A stretch of 32,000 nucleotides of DNA from Candidatus Saccharimonadota bacterium (GTDB lineage Bacteria; Patescibacteriota; Patescibacteriia; 2-12-FULL-60-25): NCBI GenBank assembly GCA_022843095.1, contig JALHOH010000001.1, positions 210,001-242,000 on the forward strand, given 5' to 3'. Made by a program: the position numbers and the translations under genes. Positions 2 to 28,000 of the stretch are shown piece after piece. The notes under the pieces were generated by a model that saw nothing but the letters and a program-made list of their open reading frames with translations, was not told the DNA's origin and searched no databases. Numbering within the stretch: the stretch's first letter is position 1; each line of letters opens with the position of its first letter.

Positions 2-3000
2 GAAACATTGGGCGCAACAGCGGCGGCGGGCGTGTGGGGCGTCGCAACGACCTCGCAGACGATTGTTTTTACCCCACCCACGAATGCAGCTCTTGGAGAA
101 ATCGCGGCCTCGGCAAAGGTCGTGATTCGCATCGGGACAAATGCCTCTGGTGGCGTGGGTCAGATTGTGAATCCAAGCGGATCCGGTAGATTTACCATTT
201 CTATTGATGGGGGGTTTGGGGATGTGGGAGGCATCGAAGTGCCGATTGTTTCTGGAGACACGGCCGCAGTGTCTGCCACCATCCCTGCAGCAGGAGGTGG
301 GGGCGGCGGCGGAGGGGGTGGCGGCGGCGCTCCAATTCCAGGAGATACGACAGCACCGCTTATTTCGAATATTCGCGCAGAAGCAATTACGACCTCATCC
401 GTTCAGATTGCCTGGGATACCGATGAAGCGTCTGACACGAAGGTGGAGTTCGGGATGACGGTCGGGTATGAGCTTGGTGCATCTTCTACGTCGGGTTTGG
501 TGACCGCGCATCGTATTTGGTTGTCGAACCTGAATCCGAGCACCGTCTATCACTTTCGCGTTTCCTCCAAAGATGCGCAGGCAAACACGGCAACGTCGGC
601 GGATCAGGTCTTCACGACGCTCGCTATTCCGGCCCCTCCGGTTCTTTCGAATATCCGCGTTCAATCGCTGACCGATGTGTCTGCGGTGGTATTGTGGGAT
701 ACGGATATTCCCGCGACGACCCGTCTTGAATACGGCCGCGTTGTTCCATACAGCGCAGAGCAATCGATCGCCGGGACACGTACCAGTCACGCGGTGCCAC
801 TGTCGGGATTGCTTCCTGGAACGACCTATCAGTTTCGTGTTAGCGGGACCAGTACAGCCGCGCTTTTTTCTCAATCGGCAAATCAAACCTTCACAACAGT
901 GACGGATACCACCCCACCCGCGAATGTGAGTGGACTCGCGGCGTCACCGGGAGACGGGGTTGTGAAATTAACCTGGGTCAATCCGACTGATCCGGATTTT
1001 TCTCGTGTCATCATCGTTGCGCGCACGGATCGCTCGCCCACCGGAATCGCGGATGGACGCGTGGTCTATTCTGGGAATGCCTCGACCGTGACAGACAGCG
1101 GGTTGATTAATGGAGTCACGCAGTTCTATGCCGTGTTCGCCCAGGACGACAAAGGGAATGCGTCGAGCGGTGCTCTGGTTGATGCGACCCCGGTTGGACC
1201 ACCAGCCCCGCCACCAGTGCCGCCTGTTTTGCCTCCACCAGTTCCGGTTCCGACCCCAACGCCCACCCCCGCGCCCCCGAGTGGTCCGGGAGGGACGGTG
1301 ATCACGCCACAGCCGACGCCTGCACCGACACCAGCCCCGACCCCAACGCCTGCACCATCTCCTGCACCAACTCCAACGCCAGCTCCGATCCCGGAACCCA
1401 CGCCAACCCCGACGCCAGAACCGACACCGGATCCAACCCCCATTCCGGTTCCAACGCCAGGCGGGGAGATCGTTCGGATTCAGCCTCAATTTTCCGTTCC
1501 AAATAGCCCTCTTCTTCTTCAGCCAGGAACAACGGGTGAAGTAACTCTGCTTTTTGGGAAGCCTGTCTCAATTTCCGTCCCATCTGCCGGTTTGCCGTCT
1601 CTGCCTGTGCGCGGAGAGATTCAGTTTGGTCGAGATCGGTACGCGCTGACCCCTAGCCCATTAAGTGGTGCGTTCTCCGCCGTGTTTGTCCCGTCGTCGA
1701 TGGGAGCGGTTTCCGCAACGGTTCGGGTGTATTTTACAAACGGCGCGGAAGCGGTCACAACGATTCCGACACGCGTGATTGCGCAGGGCGTGGTACGAGA
1801 GGCCTCTTTGGCGGGTGAAGGTGCACTGATCGCGGATGCAACGGTCACGCTCTACGATGAAGCGGGTCGCGTTTGGAATGCGCGTGCATTTGGCCAACAG
1901 AATCCGGTGGTAACGGGGAAGGAAGGGGTGTTTGGTTGGTATGCGCCGACCGGAGCCTATCGCGTGGTGGCATCGAAGAATGGGTATCAGTTGCAAGAGA
2001 TTCGGATTCGGCCAACCGAACAAACCGTTACGGGGGCGCTCACCTTACGTGCTCTGCCTAAGCCTTTGCAAACAGTGATCCAGCCGGGTGCACCGGTGAC
2101 GCAGAACATCGCGGCTGTAGCCACGGAGGTGACAAAACGTGTGGAAGCGACGTTGGAAGCCGTTCGCACTCCGGAGACGGTAGCAGCGGCAGAACAGGTG
2201 GTTGCGCCGACGGTTGTAGCGGTTGCGGCGGCGAATGCGGTGACCGCAGTTTCCGCCTTTCAATTTTTGAACTATTTGTACTACCTCATCACCCAGCCGA
2301 TTTTGCTTCTGGGACGTCGAAAGCGATTAAAGTGGGGGATGGTGTATCACGCACTCACCAAGCAGCCGATTGATTTGGCGATTGTGCGATTAGTCACGGT
2401 CCAAAACGGTCGCGTCGTGCAGACGCGTATCACGGATGCACAGGGTCGGTTCAGTATTATCGCCCCTCCAGGCAAATTTCGGTTAGAGGTAGTTAAACAG
2501 GGATTTGTGTTTCCTTCCGTGTTGCTTAAACAGGACACAACGGATATTGATTTGGCGGATTTGTACCATGGCGAGCCGATCGACGTGAAAGAGAGTTCGT
2601 TGCTGAGCTATAACATTCCGCTCGATCCGATCGAGCGCGTTGTGACACCACGTGACATCGTCGTGAAACAATTGCTTCGCAAGATTCAACACGCCGTCGG
2701 TATTGTGAGCGTGCTTGTGTCCGTGATTGTGCTGATTATCGCGCCGAGTGGGTGGACGGTCGGGCTTCTAGTTGCGCAGGTGCTGATGTATTTCCTGTTC
2801 CGTCGTCTTTCGCTTCCGCCAAAGCCAAAAGGATATGGGCTCGTGGTGGATGCGGAAACAAAGAAGCCGATTGCGCGTGCGGTCGTACGTATCTTCGATA
2901 AGAAGTATAATAAGCTCTTGGAGACGCAGATCACGGATAGTAAAGGAAAATACGGCTTCATCGTTGGAAAGAATGTGTACTATCTCGTGGGCGTTTCTTC

Positions 3001-3100
3001 TGGGTACGCCGCCTACCGTTCCGACGATATCGATCTAACGGCGGCACCCTCCACGGTCATTGATGCACCGATTGTCCTGCAGAAGCAAAAAACCGCTTAG
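2..3100 (+). CDS. Surface/membrane protein, 5'-truncated by the window edge: three Fn3-like domains, poly-Gly, Pro/Thr linker, three carboxypeptidase-regulatory-like domains interleaved with TM helices
   Basis: The frame is open to the window edge, with no in-frame stop before nt 8. Two ~90-aa repeats (nt ~341-615 and ~628-900) carry the signature W.TD..A....V.[FY]G...H...L..L.P.T.Y.FRV, which is Fn3 / purple-acid-phosphatase-N-terminal-like. A third Fn3-like unit lies at ~905-1190. Three segments resemble CarboxypepD_reg, e.g. [26 protein letters not shown] and [26 protein letters not shown]. Long hydrophobic stretches lie at ~2210-2320 and ~2700-2810. The stop is TAG at 3098-3100. Confidence 0.72.
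293..328 (+). repeat. Poly-glycine run (12 consecutive GGN codons) inside the first CDS
   Basis: Read directly in frame: gga ggt ggg ggc ggc ggc gga ggg ggt ggc ggc ggc. Confidence 0.95.
1190..1460 (+). repeat. Pro/Thr/Ala-rich low-complexity linker (PTPAPTP-type) inside the first CDS
   Basis: The translation reads [30 protein letters not shown]...[49 protein letters not shown]. The antisense G/V-rich ORF 1126-1443 is its mirror image. Confidence 0.95.
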
Positions 3101-3119
3101 TTTAGACAGGAAAATATTT

Positions 3120-3150
3120 TCATCCACGTTTTATCCACAGGTTATACACG
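3120..3150 (+). promoter_or_regulatory. Three head-to-tail DnaA-box-like 9-mers with 11-bp phasing
   Basis: The three boxes are TCATCCACG (3120-3128, 7/9), TTATCCACA (3131-3139, 9/9 to the DnaA-box consensus) and TTATACACG (3142-3150, 8/9 to TTATNCACA). They lie in the intergenic gap, 20 bp after the upstream stop and ~245 bp before the giant gene start. Confidence 0.4.
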
Positions 3151-3394
3151 TTCAAGTGACGGGCGTCTCAGGGATGAAAGTGGCCAGAACTACGCAAAGA
3201 TGCGCATTCACAGAACGATGCCATACTGGGTATGTACGTGAAGATTCCGACTTCATGCACATCCTGGACGGCATCGTTCGCCGAAAAGGAGGAAGGAGGG
3301 CGTCGTTGGCCTCGCGATGACCGCGGGACCTCACGACATGGTCTGCCCTGCTTCCGCTCTCCTCGACCTCTCGAGGAACGTTCGTTCGTGTCGT

Positions 3395-6300
3395 ATGTTG
3401 CGCCTTGATTCCTTCCGTGCCCGGGTCCTCGCCTGGAGCCTCGCCGTCTTGTGCGGCGGAGGGATGGTTGTCTGTTCGTTCCTTTTCGCGTCGCGGACCA
3501 TTGCCGCGAACGGGATCAATCGCCAGATCAACTATCAGGCAAAGTTGTTGGATACCACGGGGGCAGCCGTTCCAGACGGAACGTATTCCATTAAGTTTAG
3601 TTTGTATGCCGCCGCATCCGGTGGTACACCGCTTTGGACCGCATCTGGTACCACGGCGACGCCGGTTGCCATGAACGTGAACGTTCAGAATGGATTGTTT
3701 ACGGTGTTGCTGGGCGACACGGCGCTGTCCGCGGGCTCCCAAAATCCATTGAATGACCTCATCAATTGGAATAGCGATAGCCTGTACCTTGGTGTCACGG
3801 TCGGCGCGGATGCAGAAATGACACCGCGTAAACGGTTGGCGAGTACGCCGTACGCGTTTAATGCCGAGCGGTTGCAGGGAATGAGCGCCTCCGGGACGGC
3901 GTTTGGCGCAAATGCGCTGTTTATTGTGAATCAGACGTCCCAGACAGGCGCAACCGGGACGCGTTCTGCATTGGAGATTCGTTCGAGCGGGATGTCGGAT
4001 ACCAACGATTACTTGGTTCGGGGGATCAATTCCTCCAGCACCGTCGTGTTTGAGATCACGCGTCTTGGCGTTGTTTCAAGCTCGGAAGCGTTTGTGTCCA
4101 CGAGCAGTACAGCGACCTCCACCTTCCAGGGGACGGTTTCTTCGACGCGTGGGATTTTTGATCAATACATTTTGGTCAACGGAAAATACGTGTGTCTTGC
4201 GGACGGGACCAACTGTCAGTCGGGCGGTGGGTCTGACGGGAGTTGGACGTACGTGACTGCAAGCGGGATGGTGCGTCTGACTACGTCAACCAATGATGTG
4301 GTCCTTGGCAACACGGCGACCTCCTCTGCCGCAGGTGGCGCGCCCGTGTATTTTGATCTTTCCGGCGGGACGGCGGGAACCTCCAACGTCTATTTTGGGC
4401 ATGCCACACAAACCAATGTCGTCATCGGCGGTACCTCGACAACGGCGCCGCTTCATGGATTGTTTACCATGAACGGGGACGACCTCCTTGTTACGGGCAA
4501 TATCGGGAGTGTGTCGTCGGTCTATACAAATGGCGCATTTGTCGCGGGATCGGGTTCGACCTCATACGGGTCCGGACTCATTTCTTCCGGCGGAACGACG
4601 CCCGTGCTTACGATCACATCTGTGAGTGGGACACGGATGTTTAATGGGATCGATAATTCCTTGGGGGCGGACACGCGGTTCTCTAAGGTCGCATCATCGA
4701 CCATCGTGGCGAGTAATACCACGCCAAAACAGACACTTGTCCGCGATCGTTTGTTGTTTGTTCTTTCGAGCGGTTCAGGTCAAGGGATTCAGATTTATGA
4801 TCTTGCCTCGAGTACCCCTGCGCTTTTGAAGGAGGTAACAATCGCAAACCAAGGAATTTCGCAGCTCGACGTTCAAGGTCGGTACATGTACGTGTATAAC
4901 TACACGAAATTGACGATCTTCGACATCGCGAACCCAAGAAATCCGTTGCAGGTTGGGGAGGTAGGGAGTATGGGAACGAGTTGTTCGTTCCAGGTTGCTG
5001 GAGGGTTCGCGTATGTCATGTGCGGTAGTTATTTCTACATCGTTGATGTTCAGAATCCTGCGAATCCGTTTATTGTTTCCGAGTTTTTCTACAGCAGTGG
5101 TTCTGGTGGATCAGGGGGTGCCATTGTTCGTGGGAATTATGCCTACCTCACGCAAACAAATTCTCCGATCCTTCGCGTGATGGATGTTTCCAATCCTTAC
5201 GCCCCAACGCTTCAATATACCTCTACGACCTCGGCAAGTACGGAACCGGCAGCCATTGCGCTGCAAGGTCAGTATTTATACATCGTGAATCGCGCGACGA
5301 CAGACGGGATCATCAACGTTTATAACGTGGCAAGTTCGACAAGCCCGGTATTTGTCACGAATATCGTCGTCGGAACAAATCTGTCCGATGACTATGGATT
5401 AGTTGTCTCTGGTCGATATTTGTATGTTGCCGCGGAGAACGGAACTATCTACGTCTACGACATCACGACGCCATCATCTGCGTCCCTCGTGCAGACCTTT
5501 GCAACGGGTCAGCAGGTGCCGAATGGGTTGTCCGTGAATGGAACATCACTGTATTCCGTAGACTATGGATCTACGAAATCGTTGAACGTCATCAATCTGA
5601 CGGGGATCGAAACGAACGGGTTGGTCGCGCCGGTTGCGGAACTGGGACGGCTGCAGGTGCAAAACGACGGATTTATCGGAAATCGTTTGGATGTTCTTGG
5701 GTCGATCGCGATCGGTCGTGGGGGGTTGTACTCGGATGGCGCCATCGCGGTTCATGCCTCGGGGACGACGTCGACGATCGTCGGTCGGTTGAATGTGGTC
5801 GGTGGAATCTTCCAGAACGGCGTCCGTGTGTGTCTTGCGGATGGGACAAACTGCACGGGTGGAAGCGGGAGTGATGCGAACTGGACATATGTTGGTGCAA
5901 GCGGATTGGTCCGTCTGACAACCTCGACCAACGATCTCGTGATTGGAAGCACTGCGACTTCAACGGGTGCGCCGATCTATGCCGACCTGTCCGGGTCTAC
6001 GGATGGGACGTCTACCGTGTATTTTGGACATGCGACAAATACCAATGTCGTGATTGGCGGAACATCCACCACACATCCGTTGAACGGGTTGTTCCGGATG
6101 AATGGGGATGATCTATTGGTTACAGGAAATATTGGGAGCGTTTCTTCGGTGTACACAAACGGCGGGTTGGTTGTCGGGACGGACTCCACCTATTACCAGG
6201 ACATGCGCATCACCGGTCGTTCTGCCGGCGTGTTCAAGATCGAGAACGTGCAGGGGGGTGGATCCATCGCATCGATTGTGTTGGATGCCAATACGTCTGG

Positions 6301-9300
6301 ATTGGATCCGATCGCCATTTTTGGCGGACAAAACGGATACAAGTCGTTTATCGACTACACCGGGGATTTTGTGGTCGCCTCTTCGACGCGGTACGAAGAA
6401 ACGCGTATTTATCGCCCCTATAACTCGTTCACGATTACGGCGAGCAGTGGGACGTTTATCAACGATCTTCGCAGCACGGGGCTGAACATCCAGCCACGCG
6501 GCCTCGCAACGACGACCGCGTCCGGCAGTGGGTTGGGAGAAGGTGCTTCTTCCGTTGTCATCAATGGTCGCTACGCGTATGTCGCGAACCAGGCGTCTTC
6601 TTCCGTCAGCGTTGTGGACATTGCGAATCTGGACCGTCCTCGCGTGGTGACGACGACGGCGCTCTCCGCCTTGCCGCGCGCGCTCGCGCTTTCCGGAAAT
6701 ACGTTGTTTGTTGCGGGGGATACGACCGGCGCCTTCTTTACCTTGGATGTCTCCGATCCGGCGAACCCACGTTTGTTGAATACAGTCGGCGGAGGGTCTT
6801 TCTATGATGTCGCCGTCCAAAATGGGTTTGCGTATCTTGCCGATTTCGCAAGCAACGTGGTGCGCGTCTATGACGTGCAAGACCCAACGAACATTGCGGC
6901 TGCAACTACGATCTCTATCACGGCACCACGTGCAGTGAAGGTCGCCGGTCGGTTCTTGTACATCACCAACAATTCGACGTTCTACGTGTACGACATCACG
7001 AATCCGCGTCAGCCCTATGCATTGGGTTCCTATGTCTCGGCGAATACGCTTGAATCCATCGCGATTGATGGCGCGTATGCCTACGTTGGCCGTTCGGGAG
7101 CAACAACGGGGCTTGTGTTGGACATCTCTTCTTCCACGAATCCGACGCTTGCGGGGACGTTCAGCTGTGTGCTCGCGGGCTGTACGGATGTTCAGGTGCA
7201 TGGACGGTATTTGTATGCCGCCACGACGGGGTATGGAACCGGAATCTACATTTTTGATCTAACGGATCCGACCTCACCGGGAGCGTTGTCCTTCGCAAGT
7301 CCTCTTACAGACGATTACACGAATGATATCGCCATTTCCGGTCGCTATGCGTTTGTTGCGCTGTCTTCTGCTGCGAACCAAACCGGAACTTCAACGCTCA
7401 AGATCTTTGACTTGGGTGGGATCGAAACGACGGGACTTGTGGCACATGCCGCGGAAGTCGGGTCGTTGCAGGTTCGTGGAGATGGATTTGTCGGAAACCA
7501 TTTTGATGTCATGGGATCGCTTGGTGTTGGACGTGGCGGGATCGCCTCCGAAGGAGCTCTTGTCGTGATGGCGACGGGCACCACGTCGACGTTTCAGGGT
7601 CGCTTGAATGTGATCGGTGGGCTGTTCCAAAACGGTGTCCGCGTCTGTCTTGCAGATGGGACGAACTGTCAGGTGGGAGGTGGCGGGGGTGGCAGCGACA
7701 GCAACTGGACCGAAGTGGCGGCAAGCGGGTTTGTCCGCCTGACGACCTCGACCTATGACGTGGTCATGGGGAGTACGGCAACGTCGACGGGTGCGCCGGT
7801 GTACTTCGATCTTTCCGGAGGAATCGATAATGTGTCCTCCACCGTGTACTTCGGCCACGGAACGGGCACGGATGTCGTGATTGGTGGAACCTCGACCACG
7901 GAATCCGGATTGCATCCGCTTTTCACCATGAACGGGAATGATCTGCTGGTCATGGGGAATATCGGCAGCGTCTCTTCGGTGTACACAAACGGCGCGTTTG
8001 TCGCAGGGACGGGTTCTGTCTTCTATGGCGCAAACGGCATCACCGCGACGACGGGGACGAATTTCACATTGAATTCCGTAAGTGGAACGCGGATGGTCGG
8101 TGGAATGACGGAAGAGTGGAATAACGCGAGTCCGGCAGAAATCACGGCGTATGCGGAAGGTCCCGCCTCTTCGTACCTCACGCGCATTGCCTATCGGTAT
8201 CCGTATGCGTTTGTGAATGATACGGCTTGGCAGCGGTTGTATGTCTTCCATATTGCCGGTCCTTCCTCTACGCGGTTAGTGACCTCTACGGAATGGTCGG
8301 TCTATGGATTTAGCGATGCAGCCGACATGGCCGTTGAGGGAAACACGTTGGTGGTGGTTGGAGCGAAGGCGCACAAGTTTGATATTTCAGACCCGGTTAA
8401 CCCGCGCTATGTCGCGTCTTCCGCACAAAACCTGAACGCGAATGCGGTGAAGATTCAAGGAGGATATGCCTACATCCTTGATACCAATGGCGCGGATTCT
8501 AAGTTCTTCGTCGTGAGTTTGCAGAATACGACGCCGACCGTGGTCGGAACGATTGGAGGGATGAATTCTGCAGCACATTTGACGGTACTGGATGGGCGTG
8601 TCGCCGTGTTAGGAAATCCATTCTTCGTTGGGCAGCCACTTTCGATCATCGATGTAAAGAATCCGTTGAATCCAGTCATCACCATGACATCGTCAACGGT
8701 GGAGACCTCACAGGCGCATGGGATGACATCAAAGGATGGGTATATCTATACCGCATTCTATACGTCTACCGGTCAGAATAAGATTCTCGTTTGGGATACG
8801 CATCATCCGACAGACGTTCGTGTCGTGAATGAAATTACGACGCAGTCCGCAGGGATGCAGTATCCGGAAAACCTCACGATTGCCGATCGATACTTGTACT
8901 ACGTGAACGAGAATTACGATATCGAAATCTTCGATATCTCGAGCTCAACGAATGCCTACCCGGTTAGAACGATTCTTGGAAACGGAAACTCTGCAGCAGA
9001 GAGTGCGGTTGGGGTGTTCGGAGATTTGCTCACGTTCGGGAACACGAACAATCGTTTCAACGTCATGGATATCGGAGGGATTGATGCGATTGGGATTCGC
9101 GCGGGATCCGCGAATGTGGGGCGGTTGCAGGTGCTCGGTCCCTCAGTCTTTAATGGTCAGGTTTCTATCAATGGAGGGTTGCAAGTTGGATATGGCGGGA
9201 TCTTTTCTGAAGGTGTCTTGTCTGCCGCGTTGTTGAACATCACAACGACGGCGACGGTGAAGAATTTGGACTTGCAAAAGTCCTTTAGCCAAGTGTTGTC

Positions 9301-12457: not shown

Positions 12458-12474
12458 AACGGAATCAGGGAAGA

Positions 12475-12506
12475 AAAGACCCGTGGCTATTAGCGACGGG
12501 TTTTTT
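12475..12506 (+). terminator. Putative Rho-independent terminator after giant gene A
   Basis: The stem is CCCGT (12480-12484) / ACGGG (12496-12500), extendable by A:T pairs, with an 11-nt loop. It is followed by TTTTTT (12501-12506). The GC core is short, so the call is moderate. Confidence 0.55.
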
Positions 12507-12520
12507 CGTTTGCACCCAAT

Positions 12521-12549
12521 CCGACAAAAAAAGAAAAATGCGGTATACT
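12521..12549 (+). promoter_or_regulatory. Candidate sigma70-type promoter for giant gene B
   Basis: The -35-like element is CCGACA (12521-12526), followed by a 17-nt A-rich spacer and the -10 element TATACT (12544-12549). The start codon at 12560 lies only 10 nt after the -10, which implies a very short or absent leader. Confidence 0.3.
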
Positions 12550-12559
12550 AGAGAAGCCG

Positions 12560-15500
12560 ATGCGTGTGTCTCATCTTTTTGCGCGTGCGAGCAGCGTATT
12601 TGCCGCCGCCATCCTCGGCGTCTCTTTGGTTTTGTCTGGCCTCATCCAGTTCGGCGAAGTAGAGGCAGCAAATGGCATCAATCGTCAGATCAACTATCAG
12701 GCAAAATTGTCCGACAGTTCTGGATTTCCGGTAGCAGACGGTCAATATGCCATTAAGTTTAGTTTGTACGCCGCTGCATCCGGTGGAACGCCGCTTTGGA
12801 CCGCATCCGGAACCACGGCATCACCGAACGCGGTAACAACCACCTTGCGAAACGGGTTGTTCACGGTGCTGCTTGGGGATACTTCTGCCTCCGGTGGTTC
12901 TCAAAATCCCCTGAACGACCTCATCGATTGGAATAGCGATAGTTTGTATCTTGGAGTCACGATCGGGACCGATAGCGAAATGACCCCGCGCAAGCGCCTC
13001 GCGAGCACGCCGTACGCCTTCAATGCAGAACGGTTGCAGGGGATGAGCGCCTCCGGGACGGCGTTTGGCACCTCTTCACAGTTCGTGGTGAATCAAACGT
13101 CTCAAACGGCGGCGACCGGAACCCGCTCTGCGTTAGAAGTGCGTTCAAGCGGGATCTCAGACGCAAATGATTTTCTCATTCGTGGGATTAATTCTTCCGG
13201 AACCGCGGCTTTTCAGGTGAATCGGCAAGGGAATGTCACGACCACCGGGTATATCGTGTCCACAAGCACCGCGACCTCCACGTTCTACGGCGCCGTTTCA
13301 TCCAGTCGTGGGGTGTTTGATCAATCCTTGCAGGTAAATGGACAGCTTGTGTGTTTGGCGGATGGAACCAACTGTCAGCCTGCAAGCGGTGATTCGAACT
13401 GGGCATACAACGCGTCCGGTGGGTTGGTGCGTCTCACAACCTCGACGAATGATCTTGTGCTGGGAAGCACGGCGACCTCGACTGGTGCACCGATCTACGC
13501 AGATTTGTCCGGCGGTACTGCGGGAACCTCAACCGTGTATTTTGGCCATGCGACAAACACAAATGTCGTCATTGGTGGAACATCTACGACGCAATCTGGG
13601 TTGAATGACTTGTTTACCATGAACGGGAACGATCTTCTCGTCACGGGAAATATTGGCAGCGTTTCTTCGGTGTACACGAATGGTGCTTTCGTCGCAGGGA
13701 CGAACTCGACGTACTACCAAGACATGGGGATCGTTGCTTCTGGAACCGGGTTCTACGTTATCCGTAATCACAAGGATTGGCCGGGTCCGTCGGGAGCCAT
13801 TGTCATGGATGCGGACGCGCCGACGCAGGATTACATCACGATTTTTAGCACGCAGGGACAATTTGTCTCGTATGTCGATTACACCGGTGCGTACGTGGTC
13901 GGATCGTCTACGACGTATGGTGCTACGGATATTACGCGTCAATATGGGGCATTCACGTTGAATGCCGGAAGTGGGACGTATGTGAATGATTTGCGCAGCA
14001 CGTCGTATCGGGTAGAACGGCGTGGATCGATTTCGACCTCACCGGCCATCACTGGAGGTGGAATCGGGGCGGGCGGGACGGCGCTTGCGGTGTCTGGCCG
14101 GTATGCGTTTGTTGCAAATCGCACCTCATCTTCCATTTCGGTCATCGACGTCTCGAATCCGGATGCCCCGAAACAGGTCACGACCACCGCACTTTCGGCG
14201 CAACCGCGCGATCTGACCGTGGTTGGGAATACGTTATATGTCGCGGGAGATTCAACCGGAGCCTTCTTTACATTGGATATCTCCGATCCGGCGCGTCCGC
14301 GATTGTTGGATTCTGTGGGGGCGGGGAGTCTCTATAGCGTGAGTGTTCAGGGAGGGTATGCCTACACGGCGGATTTTGGGAGTAACTTTATCCGTGTGTA
14401 TGACGTCTCGAATCCAACGGACATTTTGACTGCAACCTCCGTTTCCGTATCGGCGCCACGCGCGGTACTTGCGCTGGGAAAATTCCTCTATGCCGTAAAT
14501 GGAAGCAACTTTTTCATCTACGACATCAGCGTCCCACATGCGCCTGTCTTGATGGGAACGTATGCGAGTGCCGGAACGCTGGAATCCATCGATATCGATG
14601 GTCGTTATGCGTATGTCGGGCGATCGGGGGCGACATCTGGTCTTATTCTAGATATCGCAAGCTCAACGAATCCCTACGCAGTAGGTTCTCTGGATTGTTT
14701 TCCAACCGGATGTACGGATGTAGCGGCGCACGGACGGTTTGTGTACACCAATCGTACGAGTGATGGTTTTGGCTTCCGTATTTTCGATGTGCTGGATCCA
14801 ACCTCTCCCCAAACAATCACGTTTACCAACCCGCTCGTGTCCGGATACATGAATGATGTGGTGGTGAGCGGACGGTATCTGTATGCGCTTCGTTCCTTCG
14901 ACAACGTCGAAACAGGAACGTCGTCACTGACGATTGTTGATCTTGGGGGGATTGAGGCGGCAACGCTCGCAGCGCATTCCGCGGAAGTCGGAAAACTCCA
15001 GGTGCGGACGGATGGATTTGTCGGGAATCATTTGGATGTGATGGGATCGCTCGCCGTTGGACGTGGAGGAATTCAAACGGACGGACCGTTGTCGGTCAGC
15101 GCAACCGGAACAACCTCGACCATTCAAGGGGCGTTGAACGTATTTGGCGGATTGTTTCAGGGAGGCGTTCGTGTGTGTCTCGCGGATGGAACAAACTGTC
15201 AGGCAGGTGGCGGAAGTGACTCGAATTGGACCTACGTTGGAGCAACGGGTCTGGTGCGTTTGACGACCTCGACGAACGACCTGGTGATTGGGAGCACGGC
15301 GACCTCGACCGGCGCACCGATCTATGCAGATTTGTCCGGAGGAACGGCCGGAACGTCGAACATCTATTTTGGTCACGCCACCAATACAAACGTGATTCTT
15401 GGCGGAACCTCCACGACACATCCTCTGAACGCCATGTTCACCATGAATGGCGATGATTTCTTGGTGACTGGAAATATTGGAAGCGTGTCGTCGGTGTATA

Positions 15501-18500
15501 CGAACGGAAACTTTGTGGCTGGGAACGGAACGAGCGTAAATATCGGAGGTGCAGGGATGTTCATGACCGGTTCTCAGTATGTCTATACAGTGACCGGCGA
15601 ATCCGCTGAACTCTCAAATCCCTCGCATTTGTTTGTATCGACGGATGGCAACCAGAGAGACGTTGCGCATTTCCTACATCAGCCATCAGGAAACCGCACT
15701 CGATTTGCCTATGATGGAAGTATCTATGCTGATGGATACGTTACAAGCTCCCAAGGATTCCGCGTTGGGAATGTCACGCTCGGCGCGACAACGCTTTCGC
15801 CTTCCGTCGGAAGTTACACCATCAGTTCTCCAAGCGGGACGATCATTAACGATATCCGAAGTCGTGGCTATAACATGGTAAAACGGGGAGCGGTGACCTT
15901 TGACGGATCATTGGGTGGGTCAGTCGACGCCGGGAAGATCCTCGTCTCGGGTAGAAATGCCTTTATTGCGAACAAGACCTCGGGCACCGTAAGCATCGTA
16001 GATATTCAGGATCCGGATGCCCCGCGGTTCGTGACCTCGACCTACGTCGTGGCCGGTGCCGGTGATGAGGTCCGAAATATCCGGACGGACGGGAAATATC
16101 TCTATGCGGGGACAAATGTCGGAACCGTTCGGATCTTTGATGTTCGTGCACCAGGGCAACCGGTGTTTGTAGGGTCCGCAACGCTCACGAGCGCAGGGAC
16201 GGTAACGGCGATCGAGGTCCAAGGGAACTCGCTCTACGCCATCTTGGGGGGAGGGGTGCTTGAAACCTTTGATGTCAGTAATCGAGCAAGTCCCGTCCTC
16301 ACGAGCTCGACGACGTCGCTTGTCGCGGGTCGTGATTTGGTGGCGGTTGGTGGACGTCTCTATATTGGTGGCGACGATTATTTCTCTGTTTTCTCACTGG
16401 ACAACCCACGCGCGCCACAGCTGCTCGCGCTTTTGCCGACTCCCGGGGTATCCAACTTCTATCTGGCAGCGCAGGGGAGTTATGTCTACACCGTAGACAT
16501 TTTTACCGTGACAAGCTCGGTCTACGACGTTTCCAGTTCCACGAATCCGTTCCGTGCCGCAGTGTATTCTACGCAAGGGCGTATCTCGCTTGCAGGCCGA
16601 ACGGCATATAGTCCGGCGTTGGAAACGTCTCGGATGCGCATCATGGATGTGACGGATCCGTATGATATCGACGGATCGCCCTCCTCTACGATTCAGATCG
16701 ATGCGACTCATACGGTGAAAGATGTGATGCCACAGGGGCGTTACGCGTATGTCCTTAGTGCGGCGAATAGTACCAATGGGCCAAATACGCTAACCGTGGT
16801 CGATGTGGGCGGAGTTGATACGAGTAATCTGACGGCAGATGTGGCTCAGCTCGGATGGCTCGATGTTTCTTCCGACGGGTTTATCTCGAACGATTTGTTT
16901 GTCGGTGGAGCGATTTCCGCAGGTCAAGGATTAAGTGTTGGCGGATCTTTCTCCGTGGTCGCCTCTAGTACCTCCAGCACGGCAAAGTTCGTGAACACCG
17001 CCTCGTTTTCAGATGGAAACCAGAATACAGGCGGAACAGAATGGGGGGCCTATATCAACTCGCTTCTTGTAGGGAGTAAGGAGAACGCAACGGGTTCGCG
17101 TGATTATGCGATGGTCGTGAATTATCGATCGAGTGGCGGTACGAGCGATGGGGTGTGTATTTCTCAAGATTCGCTTTTCTGCCCGTATTCGTCTTCCACG
17201 CAGGTTGTTTCACTGATTACGGACAGAGCCATTGTTTCAGACGGGTTTGACCTCGCGGAACTGTATCCATCATCGGGTGCAGTTGAACCGGGTGATGTCT
17301 TGGTTCTGGATTCGATGGCCTCAACCACGGTGCGACGTGCTCCGGGTGTGCAATACGATCCGCAGCTGATCGGGGTGTATTCCACGCGTCCGGCATTTCA
17401 ATTGGGGGCAACGGGAGGGATTCCGGTCGCACTCACAGGGCGCGTTCCGACCAAGGTTTCTGCTGTGAATGGGGCGGTAAGTATTGGTGATGCGCTTACC
17501 TCTTCGCCTTTTGCAGGGTACGCGATGAAGGCGACCAAACCCGGAAAGATTCTTGGATATGCGTTGGAGTCCGCGGCTGTAACCTCGACAATTGAAGCGT
17601 TCGTGAATGTCGGATATTCAGGCGGCCGAACATTGGCCGTGGATGCGACCGGACAGATTGCACAATTGCAGGATCACCTGTTCGTCGCCCCGACCACCAC
17701 CGCAAGTGCGGGCAATCCATTTGTTGGATCGTGGGCACTTACCTTCCGCGGGAGCGCGTGGGATGGGTCACAGGCGGTGGATCGGGACTTTGCCTTCGCG
17801 AATGAAGTGCTGTCCGCAACATCCGCGCGGTTGACCTTGCGCGGCCCGTCCTCGTCACAGGTTTTCAGCGTGGATGAATCCGGAAACGCGCGCGTGAGTC
17901 AGGATTTGTTGATCGGTGGCAAGTTGTATCCCTCTGCGGCAGGGTCGATGCAGAGCGACAAATACATCTTCTTGGACACGTCCGGTGGACCATCCTCGAC
18001 CTACATGGCGACGAATGCGGACGGATGGCAGGCCAACACCTCCTACGACTTCGCGGAACGGTACTACTCGCCGGATGCGCTTGAACCGGGAGATCTGGTC
18101 GTCGCGTCCGATCGCGGTCGGTTGCACGTCCAGCGTTCCTTGGACGAAAAGACGCCACTCCTTGGGATCGTCTCCACTAAACCGGCATTCATCGCCGGGG
18201 CACCTGCGACCAGTACCTACCCGATCGCGCTCGCCGGTCGTGTGCCGACCAAGGTGTCGACCATGAAGGGGGCGGTGAAAATCGGTGATCCGCTTGCGCC
18301 GTCAACCATTCCGGGGATCGCGGTCAAGGCAAAGGAATCCGGTCCGATCGTTGGGTACGCCCTGGAAGCCTATGACGGAGTCGGTATTGGGAAGATCGAG
18401 GTATTCGTAAATCCAGGATATTGGGGCAAACCGGATGAACCGACGACGCCTGCTGCGGATGCGAATGTCACGGTCACGAAGTCAGGAAGCGGCTATCGCG

Positions 18501-18985
18501 GTTTTGCCACGATTACCGCCGGGATGAAGCGGGTACGCGTGACCTATCCTTCCATCCATAGCTATCCAAACGTCCAGGTAACGCCACGCGGATCGGTCGA
18601 TGGAGGATGGTGGACGGATCATTACTCAGACGTCGGATTCGACATTCTCTTCCGTGACGCGCAGTTGCACGATGTCACCTTCTCCTGGCGCGTGGATGTG
18701 ACAGAAGATGGCCAAACGGTCTTCTTCTCGGACGGAACGACGGCGCCGATTGATCCATTAACCGGTCAGGCGGTGAATGGCGGGGAGCCAGAACCTGTTG
18801 CGCCACCGGTCGCACCCGCGCCTGCTCCTAGCGCTGTTCAGCCGGAGCCCGTTCCAGAAGAGCCAGCCGTCGAAGAAGAGACGCCTGTTGTTCCGGAACC
18901 GGTTGTTGTTCTGCCAACACCGGTCGAAGTCACGACAGAGGTGCCGGTCGAGCCGCTTACGCCGCCGACCGAGCCAGCCCCATAA
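12560..18985 (+). CDS. Giant secreted modular surface protein B (2141 aa), paralog of A: signal peptide, INYQ-type N-terminal domain, 2 stalk modules, 2 LVIVD-type 7-bladed propellers, tandem Peptidase_G2-like domains, Pro/Glu-rich tail
   Basis: This is an uninterrupted 6.4-kb ORF. Its N-terminus is MRVSHLFARASSVFAAAILGVSLVLSGLIQFGEVEA|ANGINRQINYQAKL. It is collinear with A over the first ~290 aa and over the ~600-aa C-terminal region upstream of the Pro-rich tail. The stop is TAA at 18983-18985. Confidence 0.92.
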   Translation: MRVSHLFARASSVFAAAILGVSLVLSGLIQFGEVEAANGINRQINYQAKLSDSSGFPVADGQYAIKFSLYAAASGGTPLWTASGTTASPNAVTTTLRNGLFTVLLGDTSASGGSQNPLNDLIDWNSDSLYLGVTIGTDSEMTPRKRLASTPYAFNAERLQGMSASGTAFGTSSQFVVNQTSQTAATGTRSALEVRSSGISDANDFLIRGINSSGTAAFQVNRQGNVTTTGYIVSTSTATSTFYGAVSSSRGVFDQSLQVNGQLVCLADGTNCQPASGDSNWAYNASGGLVRLTTSTNDLVLGSTATSTGAPIYADLSGGTAGTSTVYFGHATNTNVVIGGTSTTQSGLNDLFTMNGNDLLVTGNIGSVSSVYTNGAFVAGTNSTYYQDMGIVASGTGFYVIRNHKDWPGPSGAIVMDADAPTQDYITIFSTQGQFVSYVDYTGAYVVGSSTTYGATDITRQYGAFTLNAGSGTYVNDLRSTSYRVERRGSISTSPAITGGGIGAGGTALAVSGRYAFVANRTSSSISVIDVSNPDAPKQVTTTALSAQPRDLTVVGNTLYVAGDSTGAFFTLDISDPARPRLLDSVGAGSLYSVSVQGGYAYTADFGSNFIRVYDVSNPTDILTATSVSVSAPRAVLALGKFLYAVNGSNFFIYDISVPHAPVLMGTYASAGTLESIDIDGRYAYVGRSGATSGLILDIASSTNPYAVGSLDCFPTGCTDVAAHGRFVYTNRTSDGFGFRIFDVLDPTSPQTITFTNPLVSGYMNDVVVSGRYLYALRSFDNVETGTSSLTIVDLGGIEAATLAAHSAEVGKLQVRTDGFVGNHLDVMGSLAVGRGGIQTDGPLSVSATGTTSTIQGALNVFGGLFQGGVRVCLADGTNCQAGGGSDSNWTYVGATGLVRLTTSTNDLVIGSTATSTGAPIYADLSGGTAGTSNIYFGHATNTNVILGGTSTTHPLNAMFTMNGDDFLVTGNIGSVSSVYTNGNFVAGNGTSVNIGGAGMFMTGSQYVYTVTGESAELSNPSHLFVSTDGNQRDVAHFLHQPSGNRTRFAYDGSIYADGYVTSSQGFRVGNVTLGATTLSPSVGSYTISSPSGTIINDIRSRGYNMVKRGAVTFDGSLGGSVDAGKILVSGRNAFIANKTSGTVSIVDIQDPDAPRFVTSTYVVAGAGDEVRNIRTDGKYLYAGTNVGTVRIFDVRAPGQPVFVGSATLTSAGTVTAIEVQGNSLYAILGGGVLETFDVSNRASPVLTSSTTSLVAGRDLVAVGGRLYIGGDDYFSVFSLDNPRAPQLLALLPTPGVSNFYLAAQGSYVYTVDIFTVTSSVYDVSSSTNPFRAAVYSTQGRISLAGRTAYSPALETSRMRIMDVTDPYDIDGSPSSTIQIDATHTVKDVMPQGRYAYVLSAANSTNGPNTLTVVDVGGVDTSNLTADVAQLGWLDVSSDGFISNDLFVGGAISAGQGLSVGGSFSVVASSTSSTAKFVNTASFSDGNQNTGGTEWGAYINSLLVGSKENATGSRDYAMVVNYRSSGGTSDGVCISQDSLFCPYSSSTQVVSLITDRAIVSDGFDLAELYPSSGAVEPGDVLVLDSMASTTVRRAPGVQYDPQLIGVYSTRPAFQLGATGGIPVALTGRVPTKVSAVNGAVSIGDALTSSPFAGYAMKATKPGKILGYALESAAVTSTIEAFVNVGYSGGRTLAVDATGQIAQLQDHLFVAPTTTASAGNPFVGSWALTFRGSAWDGSQAVDRDFAFANEVLSATSARLTLRGPSSSQVFSVDESGNARVSQDLLIGGKLYPSAAGSMQSDKYIFLDTSGGPSSTYMATNADGWQANTSYDFAERYYSPDALEPGDLVVASDRGRLHVQRSLDEKTPLLGIVSTKPAFIAGAPATSTYPIALAGRVPTKVSTMKGAVKIGDPLAPSTIPGIAVKAKESGPIVGYALEAYDGVGIGKIEVFVNPGYWGKPDEPTTPAADANVTVTKSGSGYRGFATITAGMKRVRVTYPSIHSYPNVQVTPRGSVDGGWWTDHYSDVGFDILFRDAQLHDVTFSWRVDVTEDGQTVFFSDGTTAPIDPLTGQAVNGGEPEPVAPPVAPAPAPSAVQPEPVPEEPAVEEETPVVPEPVVVLPTPVEVTTEVPVEPLTPPTEPAP
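13349..13699 (+). repeat. Stalk (S) module copy B1
   Basis: The translation reads LVCLADGTNCQPASGDSNWAYNASGGLVRLTTSTNDLVLGSTATSTGAPIYADLSGGTAGTSTVYFGHATNTNVVIGGTSTTQSGLNDLFTMNGNDLLVTGNIGSVSSVYTNGAFVAG. The first Cys codon is at 13352. Confidence 0.9.
14070..14950 (+). other. Propeller block B-P1: seven LVIVD-type blades
   Basis: Blades include GRYAFVANRTSSSISVIDVSNPDAP, GNTLYVAGDSTGAFFTLDISDPARP, GGYAYTADFGSNFIRVYDVSNPTD, GKFLYAVNGSNFFIYDISVPHAP, GRYAYVGRSGATSGLILDIASSTNP, GRFVYTNRTSDGFGFRIFDVLDPTSP and GRYLYALRSF...SLTIVDLGG. Confidence 0.8.
15173..15523 (+). repeat. Stalk (S) module copy B2
   Basis: The translation reads RVCLADGTNCQAGGGSDSNWTYVGATGLVRLTTSTNDLVIGSTATSTGAPIYADLSGGTAGTSNIYFGHATNTNVILGGTSTTHPLNAMFTMNGDDFLVTGNIGSVSSVYTNGNFVAG. 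The first Cys codon is at 15176. Confidence 0.9.
15930..16813 (+). other. Propeller block B-P2: seven LVIVD-type blades
   Basis: Blades include GRNAFIANKTSGTVSIVDIQDPDAP, GKYLYAGTNVGTVRIFDVRAPGQP, GNSLYAILGGGVLETFDVSNRASP, GGRLYIGGDDYFSVFSLDNPRAP, GSYVYTVDIFTVTSSVYDVSSSTNP, GRTAYSPALETSRMRIMDVTDPYD and GRYAYVLSAA...TLTVVDVGG. Confidence 0.75.
17246..17617 (+). other. Peptidase_G2-like domain, copy B-1
   Basis: The translation reads FDLAELYPSSGAVEPGDVLVLDSMASTTVRRAPGVQYDPQLIGVYSTRPAFQLGATGGIPVALTGRVPTKVSAVNGAVSIGDALTSSPFAGYAMKA. Confidence 0.45.
18044..18424 (+). other. Peptidase_G2-like domain, copy B-2
   Basis: The translation reads YDFAERYYSPDALEPGDLVVASDRGRLHVQRSLDEKTPLLGIVSTKPAFIAGAPATSTYPIALAGRVPTKVSTMKGAVKIGDPLAPSTIPGIAVKA...GKIEVFVNPGYW. 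Confidence 0.45.
18780..18982 (+). repeat. Pro/Glu/Val-rich low-complexity C-terminal tail of giant protein B
   Basis: The translation reads GGEPEPVAPPVAPAPAPSAVQPEPVPEEPAVEEETPVVPEPVVVLPTPVEVTTEVPVEPLTPPTEPAP. Confidence 0.9.
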
Positions 18986-19011
18986 CCACCCGCCCGCGCG
19001 GGTGGTTTTTG
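18984..19011 (+). terminator. Strong Rho-independent terminator after giant gene B
   Basis: A perfect 8-bp GC-rich stem, CCACCCGC (18986-18993) / GCGGGTGG (18998-19005), closes a 4-nt loop (CCGC). TTTTT follows at 19006-19010. Confidence 0.85.
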
Positions 19012-19050
19012 ATCCCACCGGACCCGTGGTATGATGCGAAGGATCTCCGT

Positions 19051-21549: not shown

Positions 21550-21554
21550 TCCCT

Positions 21555-22241
21555 ATGTCTGCCTGGTGGCGCCGTTTTCTTGATCGATTCCGGGGAACTG
21601 CCGCGGAAGGGGGTTCGGATCGTCACGCGGAAGCGCAGGAGTTTGGTGCGCTTTCGCAGTCGTTCCAGGAAAGTCGCGCCGCGATTGAGGCGCGTCTTGT
21701 GGCATGCGTGGATGCGTTAGAAAAAGGGGGTGGCGATCGTCGTGCGCTCCATGCGCTCCGGGAAGAGCGTGCGCGTTTGAGGCAGCTGGTGCAGCGTCTT
21801 GCTCTGGCGGAATCGACAACGGCGGAGCTGCAGCAGGAGTGGGAAGACTGGCGCCAATACGCCGGCCGACTGGATTCAGAAGGGGAGCATCGCCGTCTGG
21901 AACGGATGGAGTTGCTTCGTTCCGAGCTCGCGCTTCGAGGGATTCGCCTTGCGGTGGATCCAGCGCCTCAAGAATCGTACGTCACCTCCGGACGTGGGTT
22001 GAATGTGGAATCCGCGTCAGATGAGCCCGTGGATGATGTCGTGGACAAGGTGCACGCCGTGGTTCGGGATGACCTTTCTGAGGTGCGAACATTTGTTCTT
22101 CCGGCGTTGGAGAAAGAAATCGAGGCCTCGTGTCCCGCGACCGGTTGCACGGAACGGGATGCGGAGCGTTGGATGGCGGCTGTTGCACGCCATCAGCGCC
22201 GCGTACATGGCGTTCACCGCCTGTTGTCGCGTACGCATTGA
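21555..22241 (+). CDS. Hypothetical soluble protein, Arg/Glu-rich, probably coiled-coil
   Basis: The ATG lies 5 nt after the upstream TAA, so the two genes look coupled. The protein is 228 aa with no TM segment. It has heptad-like charged helices (RALHALREERARLRQLVQRLALAESTTAELQQEWEDWRQ). I recognise no family. Confidence 0.5.
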   Translation: MSAWWRRFLDRFRGTAAEGGSDRHAEAQEFGALSQSFQESRAAIEARLVACVDALEKGGGDRRALHALREERARLRQLVQRLALAESTTAELQQEWEDWRQYAGRLDSEGEHRRLERMELLRSELALRGIRLAVDPAPQESYVTSGRGLNVESASDEPVDDVVDKVHAVVRDDLSEVRTFVLPALEKEIEASCPATGCTERDAERWMAAVARHQRRVHGVHRLLSRTH

Positions 22242-22295: not shown

Positions 22296-22371
22296 GGGCC
22301 CTTAGCTCAGCTGGTAGAGCGCTTCCATGGCATGGAAGAGGTCAGCGGTTCGATCCCGCTAGGGTCCACCA
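22296..22371 (+). tRNA. tRNA-Ala (anticodon GGC), CCA end encoded
   Basis: The cloverleaf reads directly as GGGCCCT TA GCTC AGCTGGTA GAGC G CTTCC ATGGCAT GGAAG AGGTC AGCGG TTCGATC CCGCT AGGGTCC A CCA. The G3:U70 alanine identity pair is present, and the anticodon loop is AT-GGC-AT. Confidence 0.97.
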
Positions 22372-26053: not shown

Positions 26054-26123
26054 AGCGTCTCTTGTACTACGTTGCATGCCTTGGATGCGTTGTCTAGTGG
26101 GCGGGGTTCGGGTAGGGTGTCCG

Positions 26124-27257: not shown

Positions 27258-27260
27258 GAC

Positions 27261-27326
27261 TTATGCACAGCATGTGGATAAGATTAATCCACAGCGAGTT
27301 TTAGCCAAAAAAATGGCATATCCACA
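27261..27326. promoter_or_regulatory. Cluster of four phased DnaA-box-like 9-mers
   Basis: The boxes are TTATGCACA (27261-27269, fits TTATNCACA), TGTGGATAA (27273-27281, the perfect box on the opposite strand), TAATCCACA (27285-27293, 8/9) and ATATCCACA (27318-27326, 8/9). Start-to-start spacings are 12, 12 and 33 bp. The cluster begins 4 nt after the upstream stop codon. Confidence 0.45.
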
Positions 27327-27865
27327 CCGGAAGATTGCGAGAAGGGAAAAATATGCTACAGTGTAAGTACGCACCTTTTCTCCCGAGTCATCGGGAATAG
27401 CGTACTTTCTAAGGCAGTGAAGCAACGAACGGTTGCCACTTCCTGTGCGTACTCTCTGTTGGTTTGTTCGATTCTCGTTTGTTCGCCGCTCACGCGGTGA
27501 GTGCACCTTAAGATTGCTCGGGACCGATGCCGATCTGTTGCTCCGCCCTCGTGCGTTTGAGCACTCCATGAGTTTCATTCTCATGTGGAGATGGGTATCG
27601 ATTCCATCTATCAACTCCGTTCATTCTTTGTGTCATTCATTGCGTTTACGCAGTGATGCACATGACAAAACACATCAATCCCAAATACCTTTGGCATGGG
27701 CCTATTTTATCGTACCCTCGTGGTCGATCAGGTCGTCTGCCATGAATGGGGTAGATGGAGCAATTCTGGATTCTGTGGAGCGCCTCGGCGTTCCCTCGCT
27801 CATAATCGTCCTTGTCACGTTGTGCCTACGGGTAGAGCTCGCCTGAGTTCCCCAACCGGTCTTCG

Positions 27866-27985
27866 ATGACGAAACCGATAACGAGCGGATGGATCCACTC
27901 TCTCGAAGCGTCACATGCGCCCAAAAACTTCTTTGCGGGCGTCCTCTGTGGCGCTTTCGTATTTCTTGTGAACCGCGCCTCCTGA
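27866..27985 (+). CDS. Very tentative 39-codon small ORF with a hydrophobic C-terminal half
   Basis: The translation is MTKPITSGWIHSLEASHAPKNFFAGVLCGAFVFLVNRAS. The ATG sits inside the hairpin CGGTCTTCG-ATGA-CGAAACCG, and the TGA stop (27983-27985) lies in the loop of the terminator. There is no Shine-Dalgarno sequence. Confidence 0.2.
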   Translation: MTKPITSGWIHSLEASHAPKNFFAGVLCGAFVFLVNRAS

Positions 27986-28000
27986 CAGGGCGCGGTTTTT
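27971..28000 (+). terminator. Rho-independent terminator-like hairpin immediately upstream of the DksA/TraR-type gene
   Basis: A 9-bp stem, AACCGCGCC (27971-27979) / GGCGCGGTT (27989-27997), closes a 9-nt loop. The T-run covers 27996-28000. Confidence 0.7.

Follow-up and report, generated by a model that had tools for sequence, protein, structure and literature searches.

A conserved gene cluster with two giant propeller-bearing proteins as a candidate cell-surface fibre system of Patescibacteria

Bacteria belonging to the candidate phyla radiation (CPR), or Patescibacteria, constitute a large fraction of bacterial diversity and are believed to live in attachment to other cells. To our knowledge, how they recognize and hold their hosts is mostly unexplained outside the type IV pili of Saccharibacteria. 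Here we describe a locus in a 32-kb stretch of DNA from a Candidatus Saccharimonadota bacterium (contig JALHOH010000001.1, positions 210,001 to 242,000; hereafter the window), in which five genes, named g1, gA, gB, g4 and g5, encode two giant modular proteins (gA and gB, hereafter the giants) and three candidate partners. We consider it probable that this locus is a CPR-type cell-surface fibre system, that is, a phage-fibre-like appendage with diversified propeller beads and dedicated partner genes. For host contact, the locus provides a concrete candidate fibre that is widely conserved.

The closest described system is the mosaic adhesive trimer (MAT) fibres of Bdellovibrio bacteriovorus (Caulton et al. 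2024, PMC10769870). This family comprises 21 paralogues in which a conserved N-domain of ~130 amino acids (aa) follows the signal peptide and precedes a trimeric shaft, and each fibre has, in addition, an S74 chaperone-protease or else a tip that varies (PMC10769870). Experimentally, MAT fibres are cell-surface adhesins that bind prey glycans, and the cell-surface partner of their N-domain is explicitly unidentified (PMC10769870). The giants share with MAT fibres the plan of signal peptide, ~130-aa N-domain, fibre and chaperone (the N-domains being compared by description), as well as the occurrence of many paralogues in which constant N-termini are combined with swapped distal modules. The giants differ from MAT fibres, however, in lacking a detectable MAT shaft, in carrying serial LVIVD propellers, in having two G2-type (phi29-like) cassettes and no S74 domain (SDxxxK; no match to PF13884), in being 2-3 times longer, and in their place in a conserved cluster alongside g1, g4 and g5.

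CPR proteins carrying the window's N-domain can also have Bd2133-like shafts and S74 chaperones. One CPR protein whose N-domain is 53% identical to that of the window, P0116, matches the Bd2133 crystal structure 8ond (E = 7.5e-7), and a Bd2133-like shaft is present in 26 of ~229 proteins with the window's N-domain, P0116 among them. These shafts link the CPR family to MAT fibres. Some of the CPR proteins that combine the N-domain with a Bd2133-like shaft end in S74 chaperones. Searches with the PDB-derived Bd2133 fragment retrieved only proteins of <=401 aa, none of which carried the N-domain.

Phage appendages provide a further comparison. Mature phi29 gp12 ends at residue 691 (PMC6542822), its chaperone is released by auto-proteolysis, and many phage spikes that carry an intramolecular chaperone act as depolymerases (PMC4690869). 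The giants share with gp12 and tailspikes a profile-homologous C-terminal cassette with DxAE at the gp12 cut position, and by analogy the same fold-then-release logic likely applies. Unlike gp12, the giants occur in a cellular context, carry the cassette in duplicate, have an N-terminus that we propose to be a secreted docking domain rather than a virion-binding one, and are built of propellers and novel stalks instead of a beta-helix depolymerase. Within the CPR, the fibrous surface of Vampirococcus lugosii has been attributed by its authors to giant proteins (Moreira et al. 2021, PMC8080830). These proteins and the grappling-hook protein GhpA of Aureispira are likewise giant, modular and surface-associated, come from small or predatory bacteria and have cell-cell contact as a proposed or shown role, but their domain sets differ from those of the window's giants (WD40, PKD, integrin and others) and a shared N-domain or chaperone is not reported; the match of our cassette profile to GhpA was not significant (E = 1.6).

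A preliminary description of the window had not recognized the locus as a described system. This view holds insofar as we found no matching family, and literature searches returned no description of LVIVD giants in Patescibacteria or of the gene cluster; analogous MAT fibres, however, were published in 2024. What is new relative to MAT and tailspike-like fibres is the series of propellers, the doubled G2-type chaperone and the linkage of g1, g4, g5 and a tRNA-Ala gene.

Modular architecture of the giant proteins

The preliminary description had placed five co-oriented genes at positions 2-22241, and checking the open reading frames (ORFs) found five consecutive plus-strand ORFs filling this interval in the order g1, gA, gB, g4 and g5. 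Both giants begin with a signal peptide that is directly followed by a conserved domain, and their ends are alike. In gA, the signal peptide and N-domain precede three stalk-propeller-collar units; after these come propeller 4 and its collar, then ~580 aa of C-terminal region and finally a Pro/Thr/Glu-rich tail. In gB, only two stalk-propeller-collar units precede a C-terminal region with two cassettes and a Pro-rich tail. Motif mapping revealed that the C-terminal region of gA likewise holds two chaperone cassettes, and that the signal peptide, INYQ-type N-terminal domain, stalk, collar and C-terminal motifs all recur in both giants, as had been proposed. In the mature giants, all cysteines occur in close pairs, Ser and Thr account for 21% of residues, the pI is 4.7 and Lys is scarce, a composition that fits an extracellular location. 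The pairing also suggests local disulfide loops. Examples of the Cys pairs are 293/300, 839/846 and 1444/1451 in gA and 265/272 and 873/880 in gB, with one conserved pair per stalk module (CLADGTNC).

The INYQ domain occupies the first ~130 residues after the signal peptide (gB aa 36-165, 12665-13054; gA 3506-3895) and has no sequence match in Pfam or the PDB. An AlphaFold2 model of gB aa 36-470 predicts a beta-sandwich, with a predicted local distance difference test (pLDDT) score >90 for model residues 5-112. Tail-fibre proteins were weakly enriched among the Foldseek matches of this N-terminal model, an enrichment that is not usable as evidence. An exhaustive HMMER search with the N-domain returned 18,774 representatives of 50% identity clusters at E <= 1e-3 and 3,807 at E <= 1e-10. 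Among the 150 best matches listed, most carry the domain near residues 30-180, and the proteins are as long as 6814 aa. The N-domain is a very large N-terminal domain family without a Pfam model. It had no match in 50,697 phage genome records or in IMG/VR viral contigs at the sensitivity used.

Homologues of gB numbered 125. Nearly all of the named ones come from Patescibacteria, for the most part Ca. Uhrbacteria, with Magasanikbacteria and Paceibacterota also represented; a small number bear odd labels such as Verrucomicrobiae, Methylomirabilis or Udaeobacter. The preliminary description had suggested a small-genome episymbiont, and this fits the named homologues from Ca. Uhrbacteria, Magasanikbacteria and Patescibacteria, which lie on contigs of ~0.7-1.1 Mb. 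Members of the gB family span ~1250-3700 aa, with conserved N- and C-terminal regions around a variable middle, and some end in Peptidase_S74 instead of a G2-type cassette. Annotations of the named homologues read 'hypothetical' or name a generic beta-propeller.

Pfam LVIVD (PF08309) identified the propellers of gA (E = 5.2e-37, 125 bits) and gB (E = 2e-29, 101 bits) far above its cut-off of 20.2 bits, in agreement with the propeller type proposed earlier. The blade motif recurs with a period of 40-47 residues. The count of seven blades (gA propellers 1 and 2, gB propeller 1) combines motifs found by regular expression, six in each of these gA propellers and five in the gB propeller, with the remainder placed by eye: the expression matched gA propeller 1 at aa 532, 573, 619, 666, 711 and 756, with a seventh blade near aa 487 by eye, and gB propeller 1 at aa 526, 569, 611, 651 and 790, with two more near aa 694 and 739 by eye. 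Within the giants, Pfam and NCBIfam recognize only the propellers, alongside weak lactonase and choice-of-anchor B matches; the lactonase matches are partial and at the level of the fold (E = 1e-7 to 1e-8). A phmmer search of gB against the PDB gave no match, and no window protein matched a phage family in PHROGs. Consistent with the preliminary description, the giants thus do not match a characterized adhesin or S-layer family end to end, since the PDB search was empty and Pfam, NCBIfam and PHROGs cover the propellers at most.

The modules differ sharply in how well they are conserved. At the protein level, the five stalk copies are 72-82% identical, the N-domains 76% and the C-terminal regions 61%, whereas the six propellers are 23-35% identical, the exception being gA propeller 2 and gB propeller 1 at 57%. 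Stalk DNA (repeat families D1-D5) is only 61-80% identical, so that the protein identity reflects selection; recent gene conversion as its source is ruled out by the same figures. The giants therefore show a clear split between a constant scaffold and hypervariable propeller beads. A stalk profile had no match in the PDB, and neither this profile nor the giants themselves matched the structures of Bd2133, Bd2439 or Bd3182. A likeness of the stalk motif to the MAT shaft motif, noticed by eye, was dropped because the profile search gave it no support.

Each giant carries two C-terminal cassettes of ~130 aa with the motifs xDxAE, GDVV, GVVST.PGF, VAL.GRVPTKVS, NG.I..GD.L and G.ALE. A cassette profile built from a 29-sequence alignment matched, in the PDB, the autochaperone of the phi29 pre-neck appendage gp12 (3gqh, E = 2.2e-5), full-length gp12 (6qz9, E = 2.9e-4) and the chaperone domain of the Dpo31 tailspike (E = 4e-4). 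In the alignment, the E of the DxAE motif is invariant and the D is kept in >=90% of sequences; all four window cassettes have DLAE or DFAE. These D and E residues align to gp12 D692 and E695 (numbering of 6qz9), within DFAEYFES, the stretch with which the released fragment begins, and we take this Asp/Glu pair to be catalytic (MEROPS family G2). Translated searches with gB cassette 2 additionally matched the C-terminus of a 478-aa baseplate/tail-pin protein of jumbo phages (tblastn E = 4e-6), whose gene adjoins a T4 gp10-like gene. Three homologues, P0058, P0059 and P0080, pass the Pfam Peptidase_G2 model PF11962 (39, 32 and 31 bits; the cut-off is 25), and the position of this match aligns with gB cassette 1. 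By profile comparison, the cassettes of gA and gB are homologous to the phi29 gp12 autochaperone, which supports the phage-appendage-like C-terminal chaperone region of the preliminary description.

Partner genes and conservation of the cluster

The g1 protein has two Fn3 domains (Pfam, 3.7e-12), three CarboxypepD_reg domains (2.2e-18), a Pro/Thr-rich linker and Ig-like domains, followed by three C-terminal hydrophobic or membrane segments within aa 726-756 and 891-938. A full-length homologue (L025:5969-9841) is 1290 aa long and has a signal or anchor sequence. These features make g1 a candidate membrane anchor or platform.

The preliminary description had presented g4 as a Wzy_C-like/TPR membrane protein. 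The polytopic membrane topology and the TPR repeats stand: an AlphaFold2 model (pLDDT 87; predicted template modelling score, pTM, 0.84) shows ~13 membrane helices and a TPR solenoid of ~300 aa, and the repeats match Pfam. The best-conserved motif of the family, GTGPGTW.Y.YAKYR..N..WNVRF, lies in a loop at aa 316-383, and this loop and the TPR domain are predicted by the positive-inside rule to face outside. Like Wzy_C/O-antigen ligases with TPR (WaaL, PglL, PilO), g4 is predicted to have many helices and, after a large external loop, carries a G.G..TF motif. However, g4 does not match Pfam Wzy_C (PF04932) even at E <= 10. Against the PDB, g4 and a profile of its membrane domain gave either no match or TPR matches only, and Foldseek of the model likewise found TPR proteins only. 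The Wzy_C likeness comes through P0147, the most distant member of the g4 family, which has a genuine Wzy_C domain (E = 9.6e-17); two Wzy_C-matching members were reported in the membrane-domain alignment, of which only P0147 was confirmed with coordinates. A g4 core hidden Markov model (HMM) built without P0147 aligns to both flanks of P0147 (12-87 and 333-527) but not to the Wzy_C core, and the AHNEYL stretch of P0147 corresponds to GSSAFL in g4, in which the His is replaced. The relationship of g4 to Wzy_C proteins, as judged from these alignments, is remote, partial and transitive only.

The g5 protein is helical and charged and has no match in Pfam, NCBIfam or PHROGs. It has neither a signal peptide nor a hydrophobic or membrane segment and is thus presumably cytoplasmic. 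The 5-nucleotide gap between g4 and g5 agrees with the translational coupling proposed earlier, for which we found no other basis. The real start of g4 is probably the ATG at 19051 rather than the TTG at 19009. Together with the hairpin and TATGAT hexamer between gB and g4, this database start suggests that g4 and g5 may form a transcription unit separate from the giants.

We determined how widely the cluster is kept by scanning with the g4 alignment, at one genome per species, and locating the other parts by tblastn. This yielded 72 loci, 69 of them of Patescibacteria type. A giant C-terminus lies immediately upstream of g4 in 36 of the 69 loci, while 9 have an alternative order in which g1 and g4 are followed by g5, the tRNA gene and a giant where the flank reaches; g4 thus adjoins a giant or g1 in 45. 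The giant is found elsewhere in the locus in 12 more, so that the flanks contain a giant or g1 in 57 of 69 overall. Neither was found in the remaining 12, of which 8 have <700 bp of upstream flank. The linkage is kept even for g4 homologues at just 27-31% identity (L068-L071). An ORF of 205-323 aa starts just past g4 in 50 of the 59 loci with enough downstream sequence, and in 49/59 it is homologous to g5 by HMM. The co-occurrence of the five genes is therefore retained in related genomes, and the cluster is real, non-random and conserved.

Two gene orders occur. The order in the Uhrbacteria assembly GCA_021413945 is g1-like gene, three giants, g4-like gene and g5-like gene. In CP064964, a complete genome of 1.08 Mb, the g4-like gene comes after three giants and an ORF of 301 aa. 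In L001, L060 and L069, g1 precedes the first giant. A tRNA-Ala(GGC) gene lies 3' of the g4-g5 pair in 15/15 loci scanned, including loci with giants beyond the tRNA. In most of the 15 it is on the same strand and directly after g5, as in the window; L028, L038 and L051 have it on the opposite strand, and L006 has it both on the opposite strand and farther off. The genes g4 and g5 and the tRNA-Ala gene are kept together as a fixed block; giants lie to either side of it, and g1 lies upstream. Giants number 1-3 per locus, and copy and module numbers vary between genomes.

In the loci with the alternative order, g1 is immediately preceded by an NYN gene and genes for three small, conserved secreted proteins, which may belong to the same system. 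In L025:2471-5862, the small secreted proteins are 306, 341 and 333 aa long and have no Pfam match; they also occur in L021, L027, L032, L035, L039, L044 and L061. Many third-party annotation (TPA) records of metagenome-assembled genomes titled 'uncultured Gammaproteobacteria bacterium' (L005, L006, L008, L021, L022 and others) carry the Uhrbacteria-type cluster, which suggests that these labels are probably wrong.

A fibre model and its alternatives

Our preferred explanation is that the giants form an extracellular fibre, which most plausibly serves contact with a host or with prey. In this model, the giants would be exported by Sec and would fold, and probably trimerize, from the C-terminus, guided by intramolecular chaperone cassettes of the phi29 gp12 type, which may then cleave themselves off at the conserved DxAE site. 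In the mature fibre, constant stalk and collar connectors would alternate with diversified seven-bladed LVIVD propellers serving as ligand-binding beads, and the N-terminal beta-sandwich, freed by signal-peptide removal, would dock the fibre at the cell envelope. With its Fn3/Ig ectodomain and three membrane segments, g1 is a candidate anchor or platform, and g4 with its putative cytoplasmic partner g5 is a candidate assembly, attachment or glycosylation factor.

A fibre that makes contact with other cells is not the only way to read a giant surface protein. The giants could be a static coat, S-layer-like or a spacer 'fur', that protects the cell or excludes by size and does not bind partner cells; the propellers would then be lattice contacts and g1, g4 and g5 general envelope-biogenesis genes. 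The acidic, Ser/Thr-rich and Lys-poor composition would suit a coat, as would the stability of the g4-g5-tRNA-Ala block wherever the giants lie, but extreme diversity of the propellers between constant connectors is not expected of such a lattice. According to the Pfam family description, LVIVD repeats come mainly from surface proteins, and fibrous coats are present on CPR cells (PMC8080830), yet variation in copy and module number between genomes, with lengths of 1250-3700 aa and 1-3 giants per locus, is typical of receptor-binding proteins rather than lattice subunits, and a chaperone of phage type is indicative of a fibre or spike. We consequently regard a static coat as unlikely. We hold it to be quite unlikely that the giants are instead released enzymes or nutrient-capture proteins with propellers that are lactonase-like or act on polysaccharide or peptidoglycan. 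No catalytic family reached its curated cut-off, and the weak Pfam and NCBIfam lactonase and choice-of-anchor B matches that suggest such an activity are, for the lactonases, fold-level and partial. Chaperone-bearing phage spikes are often depolymerases (PMC4690869) and no cell anchor was detected in the giants, both of which would agree with release; the presence of a conserved N-domain on thousands of otherwise different giants, however, suggests a common docking function.

The phage-like cassette and the tRNA gene at the end of the cluster could also indicate a prophage or tailocin remnant, or the genes could be a chance juxtaposition. Such an origin is very improbable and is largely refuted by the absence of phage genes and the conserved linkage: phage structural, integrase and secretion-system genes, whose absence from the locus the preliminary description had noted, are missing from the 32-kb window, as are phage lysis genes, and the neighbours are M23/LysM, ComM, PNPase and NYN genes. 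In addition, the N-domain matches nothing in the phage records or viral contigs at the sensitivity used, the cluster is kept across ~69 species genomes in two gene orders, and GC content is uniform (51-59% across the window).

Several observations weigh against the fibre model. The AlphaFold2 monomer model of gB aa 36-470 is confident for the N-domain only, and the stalk has pLDDT <60, a value that would be expected were the stalk to fold only as an oligomer. Foldseek of this N-terminal model against the PDB and viral structures found nothing at E <= 1e-3. Neither giant matches Pfam Peptidase_G2 (PF11962, even at E <= 10) or S74 (PF13884), and the presence of two tandem cassettes per giant is without explanation. 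The giants lack a sortase signal, a C-terminal anchor and a known wall-binding domain. In g4, the His of the AHNEYL stretch of P0147 is replaced, and g4 may thus not be catalytic. The hairpin between gB and g4 may mean that the five genes are not necessarily one operon, and the fixed g4-g5-tRNA-Ala block implies that part of the linkage could be stable local synteny and not shared function.

A broader reading, possible though doubtful, is that the INYQ beta-sandwich defines the main surface-fibre superfamily of the CPR, with g1, g4 and g5 as its dedicated anchoring and assembly machinery and the propellers as a swappable host-recognition array that would decide which host an episymbiont can attach to. 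On this broader reading, g1, g4 and g5 may represent the surface element onto which MAT-type N-domains dock, missing so far for Bdellovibrio, and g4 may be a Wzy_C-derived TPR membrane protein repurposed for fibre assembly or attachment. The three linked partner genes are in any case testable candidates for an anchor and assembly apparatus of the kind also missing for MAT fibres, and the N-domain and doubled cassette should be useful as annotation models for thousands of 'hypothetical' proteins.

Feature coordinates and neighbouring genes

Table 1 Positions of genes and protein modules in the window, with the observations that define them.
Feature	Position (nucleotides, nt)	Strand	Basis or remark
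g1	2-3100 (ORF 8-3100)	+	5' end truncated by window edge
gA (giant A)	3317-12457	+	ORF 3046 aa; likely start Met27 (nt 3395), giving ~3020 aa; database homologue P0002
gA N-terminal region (aa 64-285)	3506-4171	+	Includes ~130-aa INYQ beta-sandwich (predicted); 76% identical to gB N-region
gA stalk module 1 (CLADGTNC ... GNIGSVSSVYTNG)	4172-4576	+	Motif and identity matrix; DNA repeat
gA propeller 1, LVIVD type, 7 blades, with collar	4724-5641	+	Pfam LVIVD best aa 553-588; Lactonase 7-bladed aa 633-717
gA stalk module 2	5807-6211	+	Motif, protein identity, DNA repeat
gA propeller 2	6494-7441	+	Pfam Beta_propel aa 1079-1315; blade motifs; 57% identity to gB propeller 1 (nearest relative)
gA stalk module 3	7625-8041	+	Motif, protein identity, DNA repeat
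gA propeller 3, divergent	8234-9100	+	Blade motifs; 24-30% identity to other propellers; weak MRJP match aa 1800-1868
gA propeller 4, divergent	9284-10207	+	Pfam, blade motifs, identity matrix
gA chaperone cassette 1 (DxAE ... GRVPTKVS ... GD.L)	10703-11086	+	phi29 gp12 autochaperone-like; DNA repeat D8
gA chaperone cassette 2	11477-11866	+	Motifs, cassette profile, DNA repeat
gB (giant B)	12560-18985	+	2141 aa; identical to database protein P0001, found on an NCBI contig of 683,555 bp
gB N-terminal region	12665-13330	+	AlphaFold2 beta-sandwich, aa 40-147 confident
gB stalk module 1	13331-13729	+	Protein identity, DNA repeat
gB propeller 1, LVIVD, 7 blades	14030-14971	+	Pfam LVIVD best aa 589-623
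gB stalk module 2	15155-15559	+	Protein identity, DNA repeat
gB propeller 2	15890-16834	+	Pfam Beta_propel aa 1169-1376; blade motifs
gB chaperone cassette 1 (FDLAELY ... GRVPTKVS)	17249-17629	+	Aligns with Pfam Peptidase_G2 match in homologue P0058
gB chaperone cassette 2 (YDFAERY ... GRVPTKVS)	18047-18427	+	Profile match 3gqh; tblastn match to jumbo-phage baseplate proteins
Terminator-like hairpin (CCACCCG-cccgcg-CGGGTGG, then TTTTT)	18986-19010	+	GC-rich; immediately 3' of gB stop
TATGAT hexamer	19030-19035	+	Between hairpin and ATG 19051
g4	19009/19051-21549	+	Mechanical ORF start TTG 19009; database start ATG 19051 (832 aa)
g5	21555-22241	+	228 aa; begins 5 nt past g4 stop
tRNA-Ala(GGC)	22296-22371	+	55 nt 3' of g5

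The genes downstream of the cluster are ordinary and encode an M23/LysM peptidase, ComM, a DksA-type zinc finger protein, an LspA-like protein, PNPase and an NYN protein. About 750 bp at 27260-28000 hold no convincing ORF, and Rfam gave only chance-level matches there (E ~0.6-0.8). Just before this interval, at 25863-27257 on the plus strand, lies a 464-aa ORF that contains a single hydrophobic segment and is matched by neither Pfam nor NCBIfam; translation probably begins near 26120, and at its 5' end the ORF overlaps the beginning of the divergent ComM gene. The PNPase gene on the minus strand encodes an odd Gly/Arg-rich C-terminal extension beyond the S1 domain (GGRGGFGGGRGGFGGRGNGRGG..., 28884-29010).

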